Assembly (NCBI GenBank): GCA_016196885.1
Contig: JACPWU010000050.1
Span: 38,794 to 70,793, forward strand
Direction: 5' to 3'
Origin: Chlamydiota bacterium
GTDB lineage: Bacteria; Auribacterota; JACPWU01
Length of the DNA stretch: 32,000 bases
Positions 1-32,000 of the stretch are shown here, piece by piece. Each line of letters opens with the position of its first letter. Within the stretch, counting starts at the first letter, position 1. The notes under the pieces are model-generated. The model was given only the letters and a program-made list of their open reading frames with translations. It was not told the DNA's origin and did not search any database. The position numbers and the translations under genes were made by a program.

Positions 1-1335
1 CAAAACATGAACCACGTCTTTCAAAGAAGAACAAAGTAGAGACTTACAGGCATCCTTCAACTTTTCGTAAATCAAAGGTCCTGCCTCTCCATAAAAATAG
101 GCCTTTTTCACCTTTCCTGAAAGAAGAGGCTTTAAAAGTTCAAAATCCCCCCCCTTGAAACGTCCTCCTGCTAACCAAAGAATGGGTTTTGGAAAAACCT
201 CTAAGGCTGATCGTACCGCATCCACACTGGTCGCCTTAGAATCATTCACCCAACGGGCCCCTTCCCACTTCGCAAATATCTCTTGACGATGTTCCAAACC
301 TGAAAAAGAGGAAACGGTACGACGAATGGTTTCTAAAGAAATCCCGCATAAAGAGGCAGCAGTCACTGCAAACATCACATTTTCTAAATTGTGCTTGCCA
401 GGAAGAGCAATGTCTTCCACGGGCATGATTTCATGAATGTAATCGTGACTTAATGAAGTCCCTTTAACCCCTCCAACTCCCCTTAAATAAGGGGAGGGCT
501 GCTCCCCTCTTATGTTAAGAGGGGTTGGGGGAGTTAATGAATTTTTTCCATCATTGAAGCTTTTCATCCTCACACATAAAATCCTATTTTTAACAAAACA
601 TCCTTTCTCTTCCACCCCTTTAGAATTTATAAAAAGAGTCTTCACATGGGATGACGCAAAAGAAGCGCAAGAACGATTGACCAGGGCCCAATCTTCTTCA
701 TTTTGATTGCGAAAAATATGGGCCTTGGCCGACCCATACGCTTCCATAGAAGGGTAACGATCTAAATGATTGGCTGTCACATTTAATAAGAGACTGACCC
801 ATGGCTTCAAATTTCCAATCGCCTCCAATTGAAAAGAACTCACCTCTAATACCCAAATTTCTGTCAGGGGATTCTCAAGCACAGCCCTCGATAAACTCAA
901 GCCGATATTCCCAGCCAAAGTCGCCTTAAGACCTGCGTCGCTTAAAATTTTCCAAATCAAAGTGGCCGTCGTACTTTTTCCATTGCTTCCCGTCACAGCA
1001 ATGATTTTGCCGGATAAAAATTGACTTGCCCATTCCAACTCCCCCAAAACGGGAACCCCTCTAGCTGACAAATTTTTCACGAGCGGCATATCCAAGGGAA
1101 TCCCTGGACTTAAAATTGCAAAATCTACCTCTCGACAAAAATTTTCAGAATGAATCCCCAATTCTACTTCCACTCCTACCGTAGGAAGCTTCTCAGCCCT
1201 GTGAATCACCTCTTCACCACAGGAAGAATCTGTCACACGCACAGAAGCGCCCAATGATTTCAGGAGCAAACTCGCGCCCAAACCCGACTCGCCTAAACCA
1301 ATGACCAATGCTTTTTTACCAATCAAAGATTGCAT
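1..1335 (-). CDS. murD: UDP-N-acetylmuramoylalanine--D-glutamate ligase MurD; C-terminal end lies beyond the left edge
   Basis: Absent from the ORF track because there is no stop inside the window. My minus-strand translation from ATG 1335 gives MQSLIGKKALVIGLGESGLGASLLL (GxGxxG), IIAVTGSNGKSTT (Mur ligase P-loop) and ALPGKHNLENV. I checked every in-frame triplet from 1 to 600 and found no stop. It follows mraY as in the canonical dcw order. It carries a 24-codon repeat insertion at 465-536. Confidence 0.85.
   Translation of the reverse strand, partial: MQSLIGKKALVIGLGESGLGASLLLKSLGASVRVTDSSCGEEVIHRAEKLPTVGVEVELGIHSENFCREVDFAILSPGIPLDMPLVKNLSARGVPVLGELEWASQFLSGKIIAVTGSNGKSTTATLIWKILSDAGLKATLAGNIGLSLSRAVLENPLTEIWVLEVSSFQLEAIGNLKPWVSLLLNVTANHLDRYPSMEAYGSAKAHIFRNQNEEDWALVNRSCASFASSHVKTLFINSKGVEEKGCFVKNRILCVRMKSFNDGKNSLTPPTPLNIRGEQPSPYLRGVGGVKGTSLSHDYIHEIMPVEDIALPGKHNLENVMFAVTAASLCGISLETIRRTVSSFSGLEHRQEIFAKWEGARWVNDSKATSVDAVRSALEVFPKPILWLAGGRFKGGDFELLKPLLSGKVKKAYFYGEAGPLIYEKLKDACKSLLCSSLKDVVHVL
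465..536. mobile_element. 72-nt palindromic element (TAAC...GTTA ends), copy 1, in frame inside murD
   Basis: About 68/72 identical by hand alignment to the reverse complement of 27934-28005. It has two adjacent stem-loops, CCCCTCTTA/TAAGAGGGG and CTCCCCTTA/TAAGGGGAG. It is translated as LTPPTPLNIRGEQPSPYLRGVGGV. Confidence 0.8.
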
Positions 1336-7529: not shown

Positions 7530-7556
7530 AATGAATCTCCTTAAAATATCAATTTT

Positions 7557-7856
7557 AATGATCTTTCGAGATCATCGTGTGCGATGAAAGTTCTCCCCAT
7601 CATGCTTTTTTTGTAGTCGCCCGATTCATCGGGCAATCCGTGTGCACGGCAGCCCCATAAATGGGGCGACTACAAGGGCGATTTTCATCCTCCTTTGTGC
7701 CGACCTCAGTCGGCATGAATGTTTCATAGCAAAAATCAAAATGCAAAATTCAAAATGACAAATTAAAATTTAAAACAATCATGCAAGACTGAGAGTCAAT
7801 ATATTTTGATTTTTAATACGTCATTTTGATATTTAATTTTTAATTTTTGATTTTTT
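7557..7856. repeat. Composite structured intergenic repeat, copy B (ftsL/ftsI spacer)
   Basis: Same conserved blocks as copy A. The outer stem GTAGTCGCC/GGCGACTAC encloses three short hairpins (CCGA-TTCA-TCGG, CCGT-GTGC-ACGG, CCCCA-TAAA-TGGGG). There is an extra hairpin TGCCGAC-CTCA-GTCGGCA, and an AT-rich heptamer hairpin at 7731-7856. Confidence 0.8.
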
Positions 7857-8309: not shown

Positions 8310-8420
8310 ATGACCAATGACCCATTTCAAATGTCAAATGAATGGACAATGACCCGATGTTCAATTGGACATTGACTCATTGGAAATTCATTTGTTATTG
8401 GTCATTGGTCATTTGAAATT
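8310..8420. repeat. CCAATGA/TTGGTCA heptamer-hairpin repeat (rsmH/ftsL spacer)
   Basis: ATGACCAATGACCCATTTCAAATGTCAAATGAATGG pairs with CATTCATTTGTTATTGGTCATTGGTCAT. 7-nt periodicity is visible throughout. CAATTGGACATT core. Confidence 0.75.
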
Positions 8421-9330: not shown

Positions 9331-9349
9331 TGTTCAAACTCTTTTTAAA

Positions 9350-9426
9350 GCGTACAGCGTTCAGCGGACAGCGGACAGTTTGAAGGAACTTATTTTTCTG
9401 TCCGCTGTACGCTGAACGATGTACGC
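9350..9426. repeat. CGTACAG/CGTTCAG heptamer hairpin (mraZ/rsmH spacer)
   Basis: GCGTACAGCGTTCAGCGGACAGCGGACAG pairs with CTGTCCGCTGTACGCTGAACGATGTACGC around a ~19-nt loop. Confidence 0.75.
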
Positions 9427-9436
9427 CGAACGGTCC

Positions 9437-10028: not shown

Positions 10029-10122
10029 AGCGTTCAGCATTCAGCGTTCAGCGTTCAGCGTTCAGCGTTCAGAAAAAAACAAGCTCCTTTAAACTGTCGC
10101 TATACGCTGAACGCTGTACGCT
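10029..10122. repeat. Heptamer array hairpin between rnpB and the mraZ promoter
   Basis: AGCGTTC/AGCATTC occurs 6 times in tandem at 10029-10072. The complementary arm CTGTCGC TATACGC TGAACGC TGTACGC lies at 10094-10122. Confidence 0.8.
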
Positions 10123-10168: not shown

Positions 10169-10561
10169 GAAGGGAGAGCCGGATGATCGCTCCGACGTAA
10201 CGTCGGAGAGGAAAGTCCGAACTCCACAGGGTGAAGTGACTTCTCGTAGAAGTCGGTCGAGCGCTTTTTAAATAAAGTTCAAGACCAGGGAAAGTGCCAC
10301 AGAGACAATACTACTTCGATGCAAATCGAAGGAAAGGTGAAAAGAGAAGGGATGTTCGAAAGAGCTACTCTTCTCTCCGATGAGTACAAGCTCTATCGGA
10401 GTGGAAAACCCCACTTGGAGCGAGATCAAATAAAAGACCGTGAGGTACCCGCCTCCCGTTGACTGAATCGACAGGTCTTGGGTAAGATCGCATAAGAGAA
10501 ATGATCATCACGGGCCGTCTAAAAACGGCCTGACAGAATTCGGCTTACAGGCTCTTCCTTC
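10169..10561 (+). ncRNA. rnpB: RNase P RNA, bacterial type A
   Basis: GAGAGGAAAGTCCGAAC (CR-I / P4 5' strand), ACAGAATTCGGCTTACAG (CR-V / P4 3' strand) and AGGGAAAGTGCCACAGAGA. The P1 stem GAAGGGAGAGCC pairs with GGCTCTTCCTTC. Confidence 0.85.
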
Positions 10562-10567
10562 ATTTTT

Positions 10568-17381: not shown

Positions 17382-17476
17382 AAAAAGCAGGGAATAGGGT
17401 GTAGGGATTAGGGTATAGGGAACAATGTTCTTAATTAAAATCATTATTTCCCTAAACCCTACACCCTATTCCCTGC
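17382..17476 (-). terminator. TAGGGTA-type heptamer hairpin plus T-run downstream of tRNA-Met (putative intrinsic terminator)
   Basis: GCAGGGAATAGGGTGTAGGGATTAGGGTATAGGGAA pairs with TTCCCTAAACCCTACACCCTATTCCCTGC. On the minus strand the hairpin is followed by TTTTT (17386-17382). Confidence 0.5.
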
Positions 17477-17482
17477 ATTTCA

Positions 17483-17555
17483 TGGGCCCACTAGGATTTG
17501 AACCTAGGACCAATGGATTATGAGTCCACTGCTCTAACCGCTGAGCTATGGGCCC
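17483..17555 (-). tRNA. tRNA with anticodon CAT (elongator Met or lysidine-modified Ile2)
   Basis: The minus strand GGGCCCATAGCTCAGCGGTTAGAGCAGTGGACTCATAATCCATTGGTCCTAGGTTCAAATCCTAGTGGGCCCA folds as a cloverleaf. G1-C72 is paired and there is no GGG/CCC anticodon stem, so it is not an initiator. Confidence 0.85.
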
Positions 17556-17650
17556 GAAAAAAGTAGGGCATAGGGTATAGGGCTCAGGGCTTAGGGAAAA
17601 AATAAATAAACAACCTTACCCCAAACCCTACTCCCTACACCCTATGCCCT
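17556..17650 (-). terminator. TAGGGTA-type heptamer hairpin plus T-run downstream of rpoD (putative intrinsic terminator)
   Basis: GTAGGGCATAGGGTATAGGGCTCAGGGCTTAGGG pairs with CCCCAAACCCTACTCCCTACACCCTATGCCCT. On the minus strand it is followed by TTTTTT (17562-17557), immediately before the tRNA 5' end. Confidence 0.5.
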
Positions 17651-21109: not shown

Positions 21110-21116
21110 AGGAAAT

Positions 21117-21146
21117 AGCGTACAGCGTATAGCGTTCAGCGGACAG
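21117..21146. repeat. Single arm of the CGTACAG/CGTTCAG heptamer family (cvpA/dnaG spacer)
   Basis: AGCGTACAGCGTATAGCGTTCAGCGGACAG. No complementary arm is nearby. Confidence 0.6.
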
Positions 21147-25287: not shown

Positions 25288-25875
25288 ATGGCAAAAAAAT
25301 TGAACTCCAAAAAGTTTTCCTTCCTCGATGGCGAAATGCGTTTTTACAAACGCGGCTTCACCGTGATTGAAATGCTGGTCGTCATTTCTGTCATCGCTAT
25401 TTTGGCAAGCATCATTCTTCCGGCTTTGAACAGCGCCCAAAAAAAAGCCAAAATCACTAAAACTCAAAGTATGATTGATTCCATCACCACAGCCTTCAAA
25501 CAATATCGAACCGACTTTGGAGCCTATCCCTTAGACGATACCATTCCCAATGTTTCAGGAGGATCCCCCACCTCAGCCGAGTGCATTTATTATTATTCGG
25601 CGGCCAGTTTCGTCGCAGGAGAAAATGCGGATGAGATCACAGCTGGACCTTACATGGAATACCGCCAAAAGGATGAAGGGACTTCGACCCAAAGCGCAGA
25701 CATGGATGGGGATGGTGCCAGCGATGATTCAATTTTTCCAGTAGTGGATGCCTGGGGAAATTCGCTCATTTATATTGAGCCCGGAACCCATAATACGAAC
25801 TCTTTCGATATATATTCTTATGGACCCGACGGAGCCGATGACAGTGGAGGCGACGATGACATTGTTAATTGGTGA
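25288..25875 (+). CDS. GspG/PulG-like major pseudopilin
   Basis: Prepilin motif KRG/FTVIEMLVVISVIAILASIILP, then NSAQKKAKITKTQSMIDSI and a C-terminal DAWGNSLIY...YSYGPDGADDSGGDDDIVNW typical of T2SS G proteins. The start is uncertain. ATG 25288 has AGGAGGA at -12, ATG 25210 has GAGAGGA at -8, and ATG 25336 would give the canonical short leader MRFYKRG. Confidence 0.8.
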   Translation: MAKKLNSKKFSFLDGEMRFYKRGFTVIEMLVVISVIAILASIILPALNSAQKKAKITKTQSMIDSITTAFKQYRTDFGAYPLDDTIPNVSGGSPTSAECIYYYSAASFVAGENADEITAGPYMEYRQKDEGTSTQSADMDGDGASDDSIFPVVDAWGNSLIYIEPGTHNTNSFDIYSYGPDGADDSGGDDDIVNW

Positions 25876-26602
25876 CAAAAAGAAAGCGATCAGAAAAAAA
25901 ATAACTCCCCCAAGCCCTAACTCCCCAGGCCCCTCTTTGAAAAAAAGAGGGGGGACCCTCCCTTTCAGTTTAATCCCACAGGGACTAGAAAATCTTGAGG
26001 GGAGTTGGAGGGGTTATGAGAGTGATCTATTTTCTTTTGAAACTTCTAAAAAAAAATCATCCGGGCTAACCCTGATCGAACTTTTGCTCGTCATTTCTAT
26101 CATGGGCCTTCTTGTTTTTTTAGCGCTCCCAACGCTTTCAAAGTTTGGAAGTAACATACGACTCAAAAGTGCATCAGAACAGGTATCCAGTCTCTTTCGG
26201 ATGGCTCGGCTCTTGGCTACCACAAAAAATATCACGACTTCTGTTTTTATTTACACCCGAGAGGCGGAGCTTCCTAATCATATTTTCATTACAGGTGCAG
26301 GAGGACAATTGGAAAAGGTTTGGGTGGCTCCCTCTTTGATTGAAATTCCGGATGTTTCAGGCAACATCGGTCTTCAAACCGCCTCCTTCACTTCTTTCGG
26401 AACCACGAGCGCCATCTCGCTTCATCTTATTCAAAAGGGCACACTCATCAATGGAAATCCTTATGATGCGAGCGGGACATACGGAAGCTTGAGCAAAGCC
26501 GAACGGGTCAAATGTCAAACCGTCACCACAGACAATAACACCGGCCGGGCCAGAGTTTACGCTTATGGGAGGAATGCGCCATGGGCAAGTACGGATCTTT
26601 AA
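25856..26602 (+). CDS. GspH/FimT-like minor pseudopilin with an unusually long (~70 aa) leader
   Basis: SSG/LTLIELLLVISIMGLLVFLALP, then SASEQVSSLFRMARLLA. There is no ATG/GTG/TTG in frame between the repeat and the cleavage motif. ATG 25856 has GGAGG at -5. The track start at 25748 lies deep inside the upstream gene. Confidence 0.65.
   Translation: MTLLIGDKKKAIRKKITPPSPNSPGPSLKKRGGTLPFSLIPQGLENLEGSWRGYESDLFSFETSKKKSSGLTLIELLLVISIMGLLVFLALPTLSKFGSNIRLKSASEQVSSLFRMARLLATTKNITTSVFIYTREAELPNHIFITGAGGQLEKVWVAPSLIEIPDVSGNIGLQTASFTSFGTTSAISLHLIQKGTLINGNPYDASGTYGSLSKAERVKCQTVTTDNNTGRARVYAYGRNAPWASTDL
25902..26016. mobile_element. 115-nt variant of the TAAC...GTTA palindromic element inside the GspH-like leader
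   Basis: The left end TAACTCCCCCAAGCCC and right end GAGGGGAGTTGGAGGGGTTA match the 72-nt element. The interior differs and has a CCCCTCTT-TGAAAAAA-AGAGGGG hairpin. Confidence 0.6.
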
Positions 26603-27114
26603 AAGCAGGGTCATGGATCATGGGTCATGGGTTAACAAAAAAAGAAAGTTTCATGTTTCATGTTTCATGTTTCATGTTACTCACAACTCACGACTCACGA
26701 CTCACGACTAAAAAAGGCTTTACCCTTTTCGAAATCGTCATCGCCTTAGGAATCCTGGCCATTGGTATCTTAGGAATTCTGGCGCTTTTTCCTGTGGGGC
26801 TGGATGCTCAAAAAAGGGCGATGGATTATGGCAACATGGCCAATTTGGCAGAATGGAAAATGGCTGACATTTATTATCGAAGCCATCTCTCAGGATTTGA
26901 TAACAGTTTGACCGCGGCTCTAGATTATCCAACCAGTGGACCGGATCCTGCGCCTTTCACACAAAATTCAAAATATTTATGGCATTATTCGGTTTCTCAA
27001 CCTTTTGTGAGCACCCTTCCTGATTTTTACCGCGTGGATTTAGAAATTTATTCGGTCGAAGATACGTCAAACTCCATCGAAAAGGTGGTGAATTATTTTG
27101 AAAAACCAAACTAA
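26581..27114 (+). CDS. GspI/PilV-like minor pseudopilin
   Basis: KKG/FTLFEIVIALGILAIGILGILALFPVGL. ATG 26581 is preceded by GGGAGGA at 8 nt. Internal in-frame ATGs at 26653 and 26674 lie inside a heptamer array. Confidence 0.7.
   Translation: MGKYGSLKAGSWIMGHGLTKKESFMFHVSCFMLLTTHDSRLTTKKGFTLFEIVIALGILAIGILGILALFPVGLDAQKRAMDYGNMANLAEWKMADIYYRSHLSGFDNSLTAALDYPTSGPDPAPFTQNSKYLWHYSVSQPFVSTLPDFYRVDLEIYSVEDTSNSIEKVVNYFEKPN
26608..26710. repeat. Three consecutive heptamer arrays inside the GspI-like leader
   Basis: GGGTCAT GGATCAT GGGTCAT, then GTTTCAT x4 perfect (26649-26676), then GTTACTC ACAACTC ACGACTC ACGACTC ACGACTA in the same 7-nt register. Confidence 0.85.
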
Positions 27115-27913
27115 AATAACTGTCGTGCGTCGTGGGCCATCTATCATCCATCATCCATCATCTACTCATGGCTTTTCCATGATCGAACTTCTCGCCGCTA
27201 TGTCTGTTTTTATCATCATGGCTTTTGCCCTGTATGTCGTTTTCGATCGCGTTAATCTCGTGTGGAAACATGGAGAGTACAAGGCAGATCAATATCAGAA
27301 TGCCCGAAATGTTTTGGACATGATGGCTCGAGAATTAACTTCCGCTGTGATTGCTGTCGGAGGACCTAATGCCTTTTCAAACAATGTTTATGGCCCTGCC
27401 TATTTATGGAGTGTTGATGGCCAGGGAGGAAGTGATTACGACCAAGATCAAATCTTTTTCATTTTTGCCAGGGACAACGCACTTCGTGAAGTAGGTTACT
27501 ACATCAACGACCAAACCACAGGTGTGGGAAACACAACGGCCGCAGATGATGTTTTGATGCGGGCCTACACCAGTGATACAAACACCGATTTTGACATCAC
27601 CTCGACTGGCACTTCTTTTGGTTCTTACGACGACACAGGTTTTAAAATCACGGATCTCAACTTTAATTTTATTTATCAGAACGGTGGCAATTATACCCGC
27701 ACCGATGTCTGGGACAGTCGAATGGATTATACCAGCGCTTCAAGCACTTCTACGACCGTTGATGATGGAAAATTGCCTGATTTTATCGAGATTTCGATTC
27801 GCGTCGTAGACCAAGAAATTTTGGAAAAAGATGGGATCTCTCCGCCTCAAAAAGATCGCAAGGAATTTAAAATCATGGTCCCGATGAATCAGAGGAGTTT
27901 TAGAAATGAATAG
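27098..27913 (+). CDS. GspJ/PulJ-like minor pseudopilin
   Basis: HG/FSMIELLAAMSVFIIMAFALYVVF, then QYQNARNVLDMMARELTSA. TTG start at 27098 with AAGGTGG upstream. Overlaps the previous stop by 17 nt. Confidence 0.7.
   Translation: MKNQTKITVVRRGPSIIHHPSSTHGFSMIELLAAMSVFIIMAFALYVVFDRVNLVWKHGEYKADQYQNARNVLDMMARELTSAVIAVGGPNAFSNNVYGPAYLWSVDGQGGSDYDQDQIFFIFARDNALREVGYYINDQTTGVGNTTAADDVLMRAYTSDTNTDFDITSTGTSFGSYDDTGFKITDLNFNFIYQNGGNYTRTDVWDSRMDYTSASSTSTTVDDGKLPDFIEISIRVVDQEILEKDGISPPQKDRKEFKIMVPMNQRSFRNE
27120..27170. repeat. Heptamer array inside the GspJ-like leader
   Basis: CTGTCGT GCGTCGT GGGCCAT CTATCAT CCATCAT CCATCAT CTACTCA, translated as TVVRRGPSIIHHPSSTH. Confidence 0.7.
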
Positions 27914-30911
27914 AATCAATACTCAAAATGAATTAACTCCCCCAACCCCTCTTAACCTAAGAGGGGAGAACCTCTCCCCTTATTTAAGGGGAGTTGGAGG
28001 GGTTACATCTTTTCAAACAGGCGCCGCCCTCATCTTAGCTCTCGGCATCCTCGCTCTCATCACGGTGCTCGCCATTTCTTTCGCGACGCTCATGCGCTTT
28101 GAAGAAAAGAGTGCGCGGCAATCGCTTTATCTCATTGAAGCACGGCAAATGGCGGCCGCGGGACTCCAATACGCGATTGCCATTTTGGAAAAGGATTTAA
28201 CGGAGGATGAGGGCGGAACCACTTCCACCTCGTTAGGCGGTCCGTCGCTGTATGATTCCCTCGATGAAGAATGGGCAACGCTTTTTACGGGGAGTGACAC
28301 TGATTTAGATGGGGACGGCAACAACGATTCCAAATGGATTTACATTCATGAAGATGCTGACGGGACGGGGCCTGTGATTGGACGATATGCAGTTTTGATT
28401 CAAGACGAGGCAGGCAAAGTAAACTTGAATGTGGCTGGGAATGGCTCTCAAAACGAGGGATGGTCCCCTTATGAACTCGACATGTCGGCCCTCCCTGACA
28501 TTGGCTCCACAAAAGCCGATGCCATTCTGGATTATCGCAGGGGAACAGATATTGTGAATGGGGCAGATGCCTCTGAACTTCCTCTTGAGGGAGATGACAA
28601 TGACAATAACATTTCTTTAAGCGCAGATGGGATTGACAACAATGCCACTGCGGGGGCTGACGAAATCAACGAAGGGGCCAATGATCCAACCGAGTTTGAC
28701 CCTGAGATCCCTTATGAGGATGACCGCCCCTTTGCGTCATTGGAGGAACTTTCAAAAGTGAATGGCATTGGCTCGGATACCATTAACAACATCAGAGATG
28801 AGGCAACCGTCAATAGTCTTGACACAAATCAATATTGGAATGGCTCTTCCTGGCTCAGAAAAATCAATTTAAACCATCTTCTTTCTACATCCCAACTTTA
28901 CAGTCTGACTCTCACCACCACGAATGAAAAATATCGCCTTTCGGCGAACATGATAGACTACGCGGATCGAGATATTTATCCGACTTTCACCACGACGACG
29001 GTGAGTGCACCTGACGCAAGCAACTCCTACATGGGCGTGGAAGGCCTGCAAATCAATGAGATCATGAATAATCCTTCTTCCACCTCTATCGCCCGCACAG
29101 AGGCCCAAAGCACCTTGTCAGGTCAGGGGGCGTGGAATCAACAGAGCGGCTATGACGAGGGCAATAGCACAGATGATATAGGTCAATGGAGCTGGCCCTG
29201 GGACAATGGCCCTTATTGGATTTCGGTAGACGAAACCAATGGTTCCAATATCACGATTGATGGTCAGGCGATCAGCGATCCTTCCAGTTTCACACGCGTG
29301 ATTATTTCTGGAGAAGCGATTGATCTTTCCATCACCGATGCCCAAGAGTCCACTCCCCCCCAACAGTTGGCGACCTTCACACAGATCAACATTATGAGTG
29401 GAAAATATATCGAGATCATTAACATCAGCCAAAGAGCGATCACGATTGATTGCACGGGAAGCGATGCCTGGAAACTGGCCCTGGGAGGCACGGTCAATTT
29501 TCCGACGCTCAATCGAGATGGTTTACCAGGAACCGTAAGCGGAGCAACTTATTCTCTTTCTTTAGACGCGACAGGATCAACTGCGAGTGACATCACCCTC
29601 TCAGGTCTTCAATCCAGTACCAGCCCCCCAACCTATGATTATCTCATCATCGCAGACAGCGCTCACGCCCTGGATGAACTCTACGGCGGTGACGGAGACG
29701 GAGCCTGGAGTGGTTCTGGATCAGAACCGGGTCATGTGATTACGAATGGAGACTTGGCAAATGAATTAGCTTCTTCAGGAGTGGATTTGGCTCTGGTTAA
29801 TTCTAACGATGAAGTGATCGCTTATGTTCCCGCAAGTGCCACGAATTATCACATTGCGGCCTACGGAGGCCCCAGTACGGCTGGACAAAGTATGTCACGA
29901 GTTTCTGCGGTGGATGAAACAGGCAGTTGGAACAGTTGGACCTATTCTCCAGGTACCGACAATGACAACGCGAACAACGATATCACTTCTTCAGGTGCTC
30001 GCTATTGGTCCATCAAAGACCGCCCTTACTCAACCATCGGAGAATTGAGCGATGTCTTTCTTGGAACATCCCATAACGGAACCTACAATATCGAAAGCAG
30101 CAGTGCCAGCAGCTTCTTCGACAAAATCACCATCGCAGCCAAAAGATTAGAAGCTGAAGACGCCGACAGCATTCTCTGGTCGAGTTGGGAATCTGCGAGT
30201 GACAATGACGGCACCACCCGTTACATCGCAGGAAGCAACACAGCCAGCGCCACCTGGACTTGGACATTTGATATCACAGATAGCAGTGATATCACAAATC
30301 CCTTCAGGCTTCGCGAAAATACAGGCTTTGACGTTCTGGTTTATAGCCAATTCGCAAGGGATTTCCAATCTCCGAGTGGTGAAGACCGCTTTGTGAGGCC
30401 AAACCACAGCGTCGCCGTTGACTCCGAGACTGTCACCAGCAATCGCATCAGTATCCCCATCATAGGAAACGGAAGCGACACTCCCAAACTGGATTATATT
30501 GTCCTAACCCCAGAGCCCTATACTTATGGACGAATCAACATCAACACGGCTTCTCAAGATGCACTCATGAGTTTACCGGGGATCGCGTCTTCACTATCGA
30601 GCAACATTATTTCTTATCGCGAAACCGATCCCTTCAATCAAATTCAGGAAATCACGAGTGCTTCAAGTGTCGGAGAATCTACTTTCGAACCCATTTCCAA
30701 TCTCATCACGGTCCGAAGCGATGTGTATCGCATCATCATACGTTCCGAGCGCATCATGGACATTGACGGCGACGGGATTGAAAACGATCCCAGTGATTCA
30801 TCCGTTTCTACGGCCAGTCTTGACACCATCGTAGACCGCAATCCGACTCTGCGATTTCCGGGAACCTCCAACCGCTATCGGATTGAGTTTCAGAAATACA
30901 GATATGAATAG
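27906..30911 (+). CDS. Giant (1001 aa) GspK-like minor pseudopilin with large inserted modules
   Basis: GAGGAG lies 9 nt upstream of ATG 27906. It has an N-terminal hydrophobic segment GAALILALGILALITVLAISFA. GspK-like hallmarks are GRYAVLIQDEAGKVNLNVAG and the C-terminal GRININTASQDALMSLPGIASSLSSNIISYRE...VRSDVYRIIIRSE. About 550 aa of insert lies between them. Confidence 0.75.
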   Translation: MNRINTQNELTPPTPLNLRGENLSPYLRGVGGVTSFQTGAALILALGILALITVLAISFATLMRFEEKSARQSLYLIEARQMAAAGLQYAIAILEKDLTEDEGGTTSTSLGGPSLYDSLDEEWATLFTGSDTDLDGDGNNDSKWIYIHEDADGTGPVIGRYAVLIQDEAGKVNLNVAGNGSQNEGWSPYELDMSALPDIGSTKADAILDYRRGTDIVNGADASELPLEGDDNDNNISLSADGIDNNATAGADEINEGANDPTEFDPEIPYEDDRPFASLEELSKVNGIGSDTINNIRDEATVNSLDTNQYWNGSSWLRKINLNHLLSTSQLYSLTLTTTNEKYRLSANMIDYADRDIYPTFTTTTVSAPDASNSYMGVEGLQINEIMNNPSSTSIARTEAQSTLSGQGAWNQQSGYDEGNSTDDIGQWSWPWDNGPYWISVDETNGSNITIDGQAISDPSSFTRVIISGEAIDLSITDAQESTPPQQLATFTQINIMSGKYIEIINISQRAITIDCTGSDAWKLALGGTVNFPTLNRDGLPGTVSGATYSLSLDATGSTASDITLSGLQSSTSPPTYDYLIIADSAHALDELYGGDGDGAWSGSGSEPGHVITNGDLANELASSGVDLALVNSNDEVIAYVPASATNYHIAAYGGPSTAGQSMSRVSAVDETGSWNSWTYSPGTDNDNANNDITSSGARYWSIKDRPYSTIGELSDVFLGTSHNGTYNIESSSASSFFDKITIAAKRLEAEDADSILWSSWESASDNDGTTRYIAGSNTASATWTWTFDITDSSDITNPFRLRENTGFDVLVYSQFARDFQSPSGEDRFVRPNHSVAVDSETVTSNRISIPIIGNGSDTPKLDYIVLTPEPYTYGRININTASQDALMSLPGIASSLSSNIISYRETDPFNQIQEITSASSVGESTFEPISNLITVRSDVYRIIIRSERIMDIDGDGIENDPSDSSVSTASLDTIVDRNPTLRFPGTSNRYRIEFQKYRYE
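27934..28005. mobile_element. 72-nt palindromic element, copy 2, in frame in the GspK-like N-terminus
   Basis: TAACTCCCCCAACCCCTCTTAACCTAAGAGGGGAGAACCTCTCCCCTTATTTAAGGGGAGTTGGAGGGGTTA. It is translated as LTPPTPLNLRGENLSPYLRGVGGV, in the same phase as in murD. Confidence 0.8.
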
Positions 30912-30965: not shown

Positions 30966-32000
30966 CTATATTTCCGCATCGGACAATATTTCATCTTTAC
31001 TCAATGCCTTTCGATAAATTCTCATCTCATCCAGGATTCCATAAAACGCATACGTGGTCGAAGTCCCCCCGTTGCCGAGATAAAGGGAAAGAGGGGTCAC
31101 ATCCAATTCTTTTGATTGCGACTTGCTCGCAGCAAGTGTGCCATTCATATATAAGCTCATCGTCCCCGTTTTGGAATCATACACACCCGCCACATGAGAC
31201 CAGACGTTTCCTTTCATAGAGGCGCTACAAGTAATCCATGAACCTCCCTTATGAGTGGTATCTGTAAAGAAGGACACATTGCCTTTATAAATATAGATCC
31301 CCCAAGTCCCTCCACTCCTTTGCAGGATATACTGTTGGTTCTTTGCAGCCATATTCGTAGGGTAAACCCAGGCTTCAACGGTCAGGGCGTCTTCAGCATC
31401 CAACGTTGCAGAATCAGGTACACAGACATAACCCGATCCGTTAAACGAAAGCCCATTTGCGCTGTATCCCGCTACCGATGTCACACCACTCAATTTTCCA
31501 TTATTCTCACAGTGAGATGGGTCCGTCGCTGTCCCGTCATCAAAATTGTAATGCAACACCTCATCAGGGATTCCTTTCTCCATATCACCTTGAATCATCT
31601 CTTGGCTCAAGGCCATATTGTAGATTCTAAGCTCGTCTATTCGGCCATTGTATGCATAGGTCGGACCAGTTCCGTAGGAACCGACATAAAGATTATCAAG
31701 GGTCGAGCCCAAATGGCCCTTCTGGATTTTAGAACTTTTCAAGGTGCCATCCACATAAAGAACCATGACCCCAGCATTTTTATCATAGGTACCTGCAACA
31801 TGGGTCCAGCGATTGGCTTGAATCGAACTTGATAAAACGAGACGGCTGCCCCCATCGTCTTTGGTATCCGTGTAGAAGTAGAGCTTGCTGCTGGCCATAT
31901 AAAATCCCCAGGTCTCGCTTGATTTCTGCATAAGATATTGACGGGTGCTTGAACTGACACTGGATGGATTAATCCATGCCTCCAGGGTGACTGCGCTTGT
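30966..32000 (-). CDS. Multi-LamG (Laminin_G_3 / concanavalin-A-like lectin) repeat protein; N-terminus beyond the right edge
   Basis: Two full ~175-aa repeats plus part of a third. Each has the pattern LHYNFDDG..., ALTVEAWVYP / AVTLEAWINP, W(S/T)HVAG(V/T)YD, LY(M/V)(N/D)GTL and D(E)(M/L)RIY(R/N)(K/M)ALS. I checked that the frame stays open from 31931 to 32000. Confidence 0.75.
   Translation of the reverse strand, partial: TSAVTLEAWINPSSVSSSTRQYLMQKSSETWGFYMASSKLYFYTDTKDDGGSRLVLSSSIQANRWTHVAGTYDKNAGVMVLYVDGTLKSSKIQKGHLGSTLDNLYVGSYGTGPTYAYNGRIDELRIYNMALSQEMIQGDMEKGIPDEVLHYNFDDGTATDPSHCENNGKLSGVTSVAGYSANGLSFNGSGYVCVPDSATLDAEDALTVEAWVYPTNMAAKNQQYILQRSGGTWGIYIYKGNVSFFTDTTHKGGSWITCSASMKGNVWSHVAGVYDSKTGTMSLYMNGTLAASKSQSKELDVTPLSLYLGNGGTSTTYAFYGILDEMRIYRKALSKDEILSDAEI

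Follow-up and report, generated by a model that had tools for sequence, protein, structure and literature searches.

How can a presumably essential cell-wall gene carry a palindromic repeat within its coding sequence and still be read through? The question is raised by the murD gene at the start of a 32,000-nucleotide stretch (the window) of contig JACPWU010000050.1 (assembly GCA_016196885.1, positions 38,794 to 70,793), from a bacterium labelled Chlamydiota, in which the segment 465-536 is a palindromic element of 72 nt with the terminal tags TAAC and GTTA. A sequence-only reading of this DNA had taken the segment for mobile DNA sitting in frame in murD, at a surface loop, in the manner of the Rickettsia palindromic elements (RPEs), and this core reading is supported by orthologue alignments, a structural model and a second contig. 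A small palindromic repeat of mobile type, tolerated in frame in murD, is probably the best overall explanation of the segment. The features on which the argument turns are, in murD:

1..1335, minus strand: murD, the first 445 codons of a 490-residue protein (P0001), running off the window edge; recognized by TIGR01087, Pfam and orthologue alignments; hosts copy 1 of the element

457..573, minus strand: stretch of MurD without a counterpart in orthologues, a 39-column gap at about residues 259-297 (SFNDGKNS, the element and KGTSLSH)

465..536, minus strand: copy 1, the 72-nt TAAC...GTTA element, murD codons 267-290 (LTPPTPLNIRGEQPSPYLRGVGGV); nhmmer E=3.4e-19

Is the segment foreign to murD? 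The murD frame is open across the element, as the sequence-only reading had stated, and the translation runs straight through codons 267-290 (...SFNDGKNS-LTPPTPLNIRGEQPSPYLRGVGGV-KGTSLSHDYIHE...). The protein is annotated at NCBI as MurD of 'MAG: Chlamydiae bacterium' (MAG, metagenome-assembled genome). It scores 314 bits against the NCBIfam murD equivalog TIGR01087 (cut-off 212), despite the query being truncated at the window edge, contains the Pfam domains MurD-like_N, Mur_ligase_M and Mur_ligase_C, and matches MurD structures in the PDB at E=9e-67. The segment is missing from all 14 aligned orthologues (40-61% identity), none of which has homologous residues at this position; P0001 alone fills the gap, which spans 39 columns rather than the 24-25 residues that had been expected. 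Alignment to solved MurD structures (PDB 3lk7) likewise covers residues 6-222 and 302-482 and skips what lies between. The MurD of the sister genome GCA_016196915.1 (P0008) has no insert, and mraY and murD overlap in that genome, whereas in the window they are divided by a 350-nt spacer filled with repeats. Judging from these alignments, the murD segment is a genuine in-frame insertion, and the DNA inserted may extend beyond the 72-nt core.

The placement of the insert in the protein points the same way. An AlphaFold model built from 80 sequences (mean pLDDT 90, pTM 0.87) has a single low-confidence stretch, residues 261-296 (pLDDT <50), between the strands at 252-257 and 299-305. The insert is thus predicted to occupy the disordered tip of a surface beta-hairpin in the central domain, just before the GKHNLEN motif, where the sequence-only reading had placed it. 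All 47 columns that are invariant over the 80 MurD sequences are retained in P0001, including the P-loop GSNGKST, H190, K204, the H315-N319 motif and D365-S366-K367, and the enzyme appears to tolerate the insert. The gene lies within an intact division and cell wall (dcw) cluster that includes mraZ, rsmH, ftsL, ftsI, murE, murF, mraY, murD, ftsW and murG. A distinct NCBI contig, JACOUD010000050.1 (39,139 nt), is 100% identical to the window over the 1557 nt that they share, insert included (copy 1 is found unchanged at 1022-1093 of locus L026), and ends at window position 1557, inside another repeat. Misassembly and pseudogenisation are unlikely in view of the orthologue gap, the confident model, the retained residues and the identical second contig.

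Two other observations concern this gene and its surroundings. A MurD orthologue with 55% identity (P0003; locus L025, 1113-1205) carries a different in-frame insert of about 29 residues, PMLHRGGVSPGIVAKGASPNTLGRGSTRVR, in another loop, and this insert contains the palindromes CCACGCCCCGATGT/ACATCGGGGCGGGG, which suggests that palindromic coding inserts may recur in the MurD of this lineage. Downstream of murG, L026 (3996-6221) encodes a 741-residue fusion of MurC (Mur ligase domains) with MurB (FAD_binding_4, MurB_C), ddl being a separate gene; this differs from the MurC-Ddl fusion that is typical of Chlamydia.

What kind of element is this? The window holds two further copies, both in pseudopilin genes:

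27934..28005, plus strand: copy 2, 72-nt element; in the GspK-like gene it forms codons 10-33, ahead of the G|AALILAL motif and the transmembrane helix

25902..26016, plus strand: copy 3, a variant of 115 nt; its termini are unchanged, its 5' arm is partly duplicated and its hairpin 1 is altered; nhmmer E=3.7e-7

27906..30911, plus strand: gene for a GspK-like large pseudopilin of 1001 residues, with HHH_3 and T2SSK matches; hosts copy 2

25856..26602, plus strand: gene for a GspH-like pseudopilin, with the N_methyl motif at residues 65-90 and a BLASTP match to the sister orthologue; hosts copy 3

477-497 (CTCCCCTTA/TAAGGGGAG) and 502-524 (CCCCTCTTA/TAAGAGGGG), no strand assigned: internal hairpins of copy 1 (span 477..524), with a short unpaired linker between them

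27946-27968 and 27974-27993, no strand assigned: internal hairpins of copy 2 (span 27946..27993)

Copy 1, read on the plus strand, and the reverse complement of copy 2 are identical at 68 of 72 bases in an ungapped alignment, the very figure that had been estimated by hand, and the similarity stretches to 81 nt at 93% (repeat I1). Each of the two measures exactly 72 nt from TAAC to GTTA and contains two adjacent stem-loops, as had been described; to these, single-strand folding of either strand adds a closing stem, giving a Y-shaped fold with an energy of -21.2 to -21.4 kcal/mol (z-scores -3.8 to -4.1, DNA parameters). Terminal inverted repeats are present: the 22-nt arms pair at 18 of 22 positions, and two of the four mismatches are G-T wobbles. 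Each half of the element consists of a TAAC tag, an 8-nt spacer and a hairpin of 9-10 bp (CCCCTCTTAA..TTAAGAGGGG), and the two halves are inverted with respect to each other. At up to three mismatches, the 22-nt arm occurs three times in the window, against 0.00 expected from 100 shuffles. A third, longer copy, which the sequence-only reading had missed, emerged from this arm search and again from nhmmer. An nhmmer profile built from 14 copies detected no fourth one within the window and the 10 kb past murD, so that the census stands at three copies in about 42 kb of genome, all three of them translated, in three unrelated host genes (murD, GspK-like and GspH-like).

Copies 1 and 2 differ at four bases, every one of them unpaired: three belong to the linker that separates the hairpins, the fourth to a hairpin loop. 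Only some 16 of the 72 positions are unpaired, and the chance of all four landing there is about 0.002. The same four differences alter three of the 24 encoded residues, leaving 21 identical. This pattern was counted in support of a constraint that would act on the nucleic acid rather than on the peptide.

How are the pseudopilin genes affected? In the GspK-like gene, copy 2 has the same orientation and codon phase as copy 1 in murD and encodes LTPPTPLNLRGENLSPYLRGVGGV. The protein starts MNRINTQNE-[24 aa]-TSFQTG-AALILALG, compared with MNRKAG-AALILALG, lacking the insert, in the closest orthologue (P0126, 53% identity). There is no in-frame ATG, GTG or TTG between copy 2 and the conserved GAALILALG, and the ATG at 27906, which overlaps the stop of the preceding open reading frame (ORF), has AGGAG 8 nt upstream; given this ribosome-binding site and the lack of a later start, copy 2 is translated as part of a short N-terminal leader. 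Copy 3 seemed intergenic at first but is read through within the leader of the GspH-like protein, whose ATG at 25856 overlaps the upstream T2SSG stop by 20 nt, an arrangement that is exactly matched in the syntenic sister locus (L070). This leader, MTLLIGDKKKAIRKK-[element]-ESDLFSFETSKKKSSG|LTLIEL, has 67 residues before G|LTLIEL, against 12 (MTLPIGEYNKKG|FTLIEL) in the sister genome. The inserts are missing from the GspH-like orthologue in L070 and from P0126. Both pseudopilin inserts precede a cleavage motif of the G|F/L/A-TLIE type, that is, they lie in the leader peptide, which, going by these motifs, would normally be cut off by prepilin peptidase, so that the mature pseudopilins would be unaffected. 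In this genome, repeats apparently find a permissive landing zone in prepilin leader peptides. The GspK-like gene of the sister genome carries, at the identical site, a half-decayed copy of the element (L070, 10029-10090).

Other repeats are found in the same group of genes. Arrays of 7-nt units (GGGTCAT, GTTTCAT, ACTCACG and CATCCAT) lie at 26608-26709 and 27138-27162, inside the leader-coding parts of the pseudopilin genes 26581-27114 and 27098-27913, the leaders of which are about 25 and 9 residues longer, respectively, than in the sister genome. Since seven is not a multiple of three, the frame would shift if the number of repeats changed, and these genes are possible phase-variable (contingency) loci. 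Nine consecutive A at 26046-26054, just upstream of a pseudopilin cleavage motif, could likewise be a slippage site or reflect an ambiguity in sequencing length; with ten A, an out-of-frame TTG at about 26038 would give the short leader MKLLKKKSSG|LTLIEL.

Why do copies in unrelated genes share their phase and their peptide? In a six-frame translation of the 72-mer, five of the six frames hold stops, and the sole open frame gives TPPTPL...RGVGGV. The TAA and TTA triplets of the two tags alone shut four frames, internal TAAs contribute further stops, and open passage through both arms needs a length divisible by three. With only one stop-free frame in six, any intragenic copy that survives must give this peptide, and this accounts for the same phase and peptide in unrelated genes. 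The shared peptide (L-TPPTPL...RGVGGV) is the result of a survivorship filter and no evidence of peptide selection. The recurrence of phase and peptide in a pseudopilin gene, which the sequence-only reading had used to argue for an insert tolerated or selected as a peptide, is therefore borne out as an observation (21 of 24 residues), whereas its force as an argument for selection is lost. In a profile search of 1.84 billion representative proteins, the peptide was found only in the GspK-like protein itself, translated CRISPR arrays being noise.

How far does the family extend? The arm pattern TAACYCCYCCAACYCCYCTYAA was scanned in one genome per species and in the JGI metagenomes, yielding 24 and 43 loci, respectively; by our own estimate, derived from the pattern's information content on the assumption of uniform base composition, chance would account for about two matches. 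Nearly all of the matches carry the complementary hairpin arm, which is not part of the pattern. By their labels, the contigs with the element are up to 488 kb long in Patescibacteria, 76-82 kb in Nitrospirota/Thermodesulfovibrionia and 102-106 kb in Desulfuromonadales, and the element is also present in Saccharibacteria, Uhrbacteria and Buchananbacteria. It is arranged as singlets (tag plus hairpin 1), as inverted dimers with a variable linker (the Y form of 72-98 nt), and as clusters with extra hairpins. The TAAC tag (GTTA on the other strand) is present in every copy, and in the Patescibacteria subfamily the palindrome extends to CCTAAC...GTTAGG. The stems of the subfamilies change in pairs, CCCCTCTTAA/TTAAGAGGGG being replaced by CTCCTCTT/AAGAGGAG in Patescibacteria and by CCCCCCTTAA/TTAAGGGGGG in others, and compensatory pairs are seen in hairpin 2. 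The sequence-only reading had expected a lineage-specific insert in MurD; on the evidence of these scans, the element family is not lineage-specific, since Patescibacteria, Nitrospirota and Desulfuromonadales all have the same tagged hairpin architecture.

Copies in other genomes are mostly intergenic, and many have their frame shut by stops. Where they do lie in frame within genes, it is always the TPPTPL frame that is used. In TrmD from two Saccharibacteria contigs (L007, 1940-1975; L064, 693-728), a half-element at the same site encodes LTPPTPLKLRGE, which forms extra loop residues in an alignment to TrmD structures in the PDB. The element also stands in this frame in a PriA-like gene of Patescibacteria (L024 = L055, about 2357-2457; NCBIfam primosomal protein N', E=9e-27, below the curated cut-off) and in a polytopic membrane protein of Patescibacteria (L002, 1947-2048). 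Among the ten distinct copies of the Patescibacteria subfamily, six keep the TPPTPL frame open and four do not, so the open frame is not a fixed property of the family.

One of the loci, L029, has an unusual arrangement. Just upstream of cas2 is an element copy, accompanied by an extra TCCCCCTTAACCTAAGGGGGA hairpin, that is duplicated beyond an apparent CRISPR array (100-240 and 1420-1550), and an ORF at this array has a repeated translated motif. A gene resembling the REP-associated tyrosine transposases (RAYTs; REP, repetitive extragenic palindrome) is situated at a distance of 1.5 kb; part of its 5' end has been duplicated.

What else could explain the segment? That it is an artefact of chimeric assembly at a repeat, or that murD is a pseudogene backed by a second copy, would be in keeping with a metagenome-assembled source, in which a second murD elsewhere is possible, and with the fact that repeats do break assemblies here, the NCBI contig ending in another repeat at window position 1557. 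However, two contigs with different ends agree across the insert, both flanks are collinear MurD sequence in one frame, the invariant residues are kept, the equivalog score is above its cut-off and the dcw cluster around the gene is intact; artefact or decay has hardly any chance of being the answer. It also seems very improbable that the 24-residue peptide is a selected protein module, a flexible linker or interaction motif recruited into MurD and the pseudopilins. The nearly identical peptides in unrelated proteins and the TPPTPL frame in the TrmD and PriA-like genes of other phyla would agree with such a module, and a composition rich in Pro and Gly suits a surface loop, but the frame is forced, being the only open one in six. 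Moreover, four nucleotide differences have led to three residue changes, the region is predicted to be disordered, the profile search did not find the peptide in other representative proteins, two of the three copies lie in leaders that are expected to be cleaved, and elsewhere the copies are mostly intergenic, many with stop-closed frames.

A role at the level of the nucleic acid, with the peptide as a by-product, is unlikely. The element might be kept as an mRNA or DNA hairpin that affects translation, transcript stability or processing in operons, or as a site bound by a host protein, in line with proposals for REPs and for bacterial interspersed mosaic elements (BIMEs). This would account for stems that are invariant between copies while all four differences are unpaired, for the stem changes that keep pairing between subfamilies (CCCCTCTTAA/TTAAGAGGGG, CTCCTCTT/AAGAGGAG, CCCCCCTTAA/TTAAGGGGGG) and the compensatory pairs in hairpin 2, and for the fact that the sister genome retains, at the same site, a 5' half whose conservation exceeds that of the flanking codons. 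The stems also pair Shine-Dalgarno-like GAGGGG/GGGGAG with CCCCTC, and two copies lie no more than about 30-50 nt from start codons. Conservation of the stems is, however, equally expected if a transposase recognizes the hairpins or if the copies are young. No Rfam family scored above noise with the window copies or the Patescibacteria variant; as terminators, the copies offer only weak alternative hairpins without proper T tails; and the positions are heterogeneous, from the middle of murD to leaders and to intergenic sites in other genomes. Finally, the TAAC...GTTA ends, and especially the CCTAAC...GTTAGG of Patescibacteria, resemble the R''/R' boxes of integron attC sites, and the closing stem has bulged or mismatched bases, so one might think of a site-specific recombination site, either attC-like (RYYYAAC...GTTRRRY) or the target of another recombinase. 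There are no cassette arrays and no integrase nearby, the copies lie in housekeeping genes or kilobases apart, there are two internal hairpins instead of one bulged stem, and the ends of the window copies (CATTAAC/GTTAAAG, AATTAAC/GTTACAT etc.) do not fit RYYYAAC/GTTRRRY, leaving this explanation next to no chance.

How, then, would a small palindromic repeat of mobile type have come to be tolerated in murD? [quoted passage not shown] Only one orientation and phase would leave the host gene open, and the intragenic survivors would consequently share their peptide. The insert is most likely a neutral or slightly costly passenger. Mobility itself is something we infer, and for its means we can offer a guess, namely that the element spreads in trans as folded single-stranded DNA, possibly by way of a HUH/Y1 (RAYT-like) transposase. 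Genes combining Y1_Tnp and Bac_DnaA_C domains (RAYT-like) do exist at L070 (13272-14240, directly downstream of the GspK-like gene) and in L029. In a tblastn comparison of the two Y1_Tnp proteins with the window and all 71 loci, the matches were confined to L029 and L070 themselves. In the window, the position of the L070 gene, beside the GspK-like gene, is taken by an ORF (30966-31931) that was considered as a transposase but is a LamG-type protein. A plasmid or phage vector was considered as well and set aside, as there was no blastn match in PLSDB or in phage records and no pattern match in IMG/VR. An autonomous partner insertion sequence was not found in the loci.

Several facts weigh against a tolerated mobile repeat of this kind. 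No transposase or integrase is encoded in the window, no element copies flank the Y1_Tnp genes of L070 and L029, and, apart from a possible TA within the tags, no target-site duplication is convincing; transposition in trans by a HUH enzyme is for these reasons only a reasoned guess. An 8-nt direct repeat, TTCATTAA, does flank copy 1, with nothing comparable at copies 2 and 3 or at the copies in other genomes; being confined to copy 1, it was treated as chance or microhomology rather than as a target-site duplication. No empty site was found in a close relative, and the copy count covers about 42 kb of the source genome. The extra residues of the three hosts (39, 33 and 55) exceed the core (24, 24 and 38) in every case, which makes the true boundaries of the element uncertain. 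Lastly, the 5' half of the half-copy in the sister GspK-like gene is about 94% identical to the window copy, against about 70% for the flanking codons, and a copy at the same site could fit site-specific targeting, gene conversion or a functional or hairpin constraint better than a purely neutral passenger. Targeting of particular sites may also be suggested by the same-site copies in two diverged GspK-like and two TrmD genes.

A wider reading is possible but doubtful: that the TAAC-tagged element represents a previously undescribed REPIN-like mobile family, passing from one phylum to another and adapted to survival within genes, with members in a PVC/Chlamydiae-labelled genome, in Patescibacteria including Saccharibacteria, in Nitrospirota and in Desulfuromonadales. 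Lengths divisible by three may serve to keep one stop-free frame encoding a flexible linker rich in Pro and Gly, and the family may colonize housekeeping genes (murD, trmD, priA, pilin leaders) in small, gene-dense, uncultivated groundwater bacteria.

The window is rich in other repeats as well. It contains at least 20 tandem arrays of 7-nt units, among them AGCGTTC, AGCGTAC, CAAAATC, AGGGTAT, TAGGGCA and TCATTGG, at 1563-1611, 7729-7855, 8388-8413, 9349-9432, 10029-10122, 17389-17468, 17564-17644, 21115-21146 and other positions. Many are inverted pairs that form intergenic hairpins of 30-50 nt. We take these arrays to resemble the heptameric STRR (short tandemly repeated repetitive) sequences of cyanobacteria. 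The class A bacterial RNase P RNA (10171-10563, 188 bits) and a tRNA (17483-17555) are each bracketed by heptamer hairpin arrays. Within the dcw cluster, murD and ftsI each have an upstream repeat module of about 300 nt (1336-1686 and 7530-7856, respectively), the two sharing a block of 80 nt at 90% identity. The module at ftsI includes a canonical GTAG-tagged REP dimer (7610-7675; GTAGTCGCCCGATTCATCGGGC...GCCCCATAAATGGGGCGACTAC), and in the module at murD the REP dimer is split by a nested palindrome, CCCCCCACCCAATC...GATTGGGTGGGGGG (1398-1544). It is inside the latter module that contig JACOUD010000050.1 terminates.

The locus provides a clean case of what would be selfish palindromic DNA translated in a presumably essential cell-wall gene, in a host outside the classic Rickettsia, and it shows why such inserts share a peptide: the stop codons of the tags filter out all frames but one. 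It also holds a lesson for annotation, as inserts of this type should not be taken for pseudogenisation or misassembly. REP families are usually lineage-specific and vertically inherited, and against this usual view of REP-type repeats stand the near-identical 22-nt arms of the element in at least four distant phyla.

Is any of this new? In-frame palindromic insertions are established in Rickettsia, according to the passages on RPEs in two papers (PMC10969869, PMC3733652), which summarize Ogata et al. (2000, 2002), and a review of prokaryotic MITEs calls in-frame fusions of intragenic MITEs 'not unusual', with RPEs as the extreme case (PMC10969869). Di Nocera et al. (2013) found REPs inside ORFs in several species and phyla, most numerously in Opitutus terrae and R. 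conorii, more than half of them being dimers or groups that encode 20-30 residues, and cautioned that intragenic REPs at N termini are often annotation errors (PMC3733652). The latter possibility was checked and excluded for copies 2 and 3. The phenomenon is thus not new in principle, in-frame palindromic repeats being already documented as RPEs and as the intragenic REPs of Opitutus. The suggestion that such an insertion had not been described for this kind of genome stands only in part, since intragenic in-frame REP dimers are known from several phyla (PMC3733652), whereas the peptide and DNA strings of this family had no match in a full-text literature search. The novelty lies in the element family, in its occurrence across several phyla, Patescibacteria (Candidate Phyla Radiation) among them, and in prepilin leaders serving as landing sites.

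Among known systems, the integron attC site can be set apart, since its RYYYAAC/GTTRRRY boxes are not matched and the element has two hairpins and no integrase. The palindrome-associated transposable elements (PATEs) derived from IS200/IS605 share with it two subterminal hairpins and the lack of a target-site duplication, which would fit single-strand transposition by a Y1 HUH enzyme, and Y1_Tnp genes do occur in the sister genome (L070) and in L029. On the other hand, the element is symmetric, whereas the ends of IS200/IS605 are asymmetric, it has no separable conserved target tetranucleotide at its flank, and the Y1_Tnp association is weak (2 of 71 loci, with the genes unflanked by copies). 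MITEs such as ERIC/RU, QMITE1 of Coxiella and Anabaena MITEb/e (PMC10969869, PMC2759123, PMC5896051) are similarly short, with terminal inverted repeats, an open frame and in-frame fusion to host genes; the element differs in having neither an evident target-site duplication nor a known parent insertion sequence, and is shorter than most MITEs.

The likeness to REPs and REPINs (PMC3733652; Bertels and Rainey 2011, PMC3116915) lies in the tetranucleotide tag followed by a short hairpin, in the occurrence as singlets and inverted dimers with a short spacer, and in the coding capacity of 20-30 residues of REP dimers within ORFs (PMC3733652); the clusters with extra hairpins resemble BIMEs. The tag, however, is TAAC and not the GTAG or CGTC by which REPs are defined in PMC3733652, tag and hairpin are separated by an 8-nt spacer, the window and the loci yielded no RAYT gene with element copies on its flanks, and all three copies seen in about 42 kb are intragenic, those elsewhere being mostly intergenic. 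From the RPEs, which measure about 100-150 bp, the element is distinguished by its length of 72 nt, by its TAAC tags, by its presence in distant phyla, where it is mostly intergenic, and by its host, a groundwater metagenome-assembled genome labelled Chlamydiae instead of a Rickettsia; the two are likened by description and not by sequence. In that description they have much in common: both are small palindromes that lie in frame in unrelated housekeeping genes, encode a family-specific peptide, occupy sites compatible with the fold of the host protein and bring no transposase of their own.

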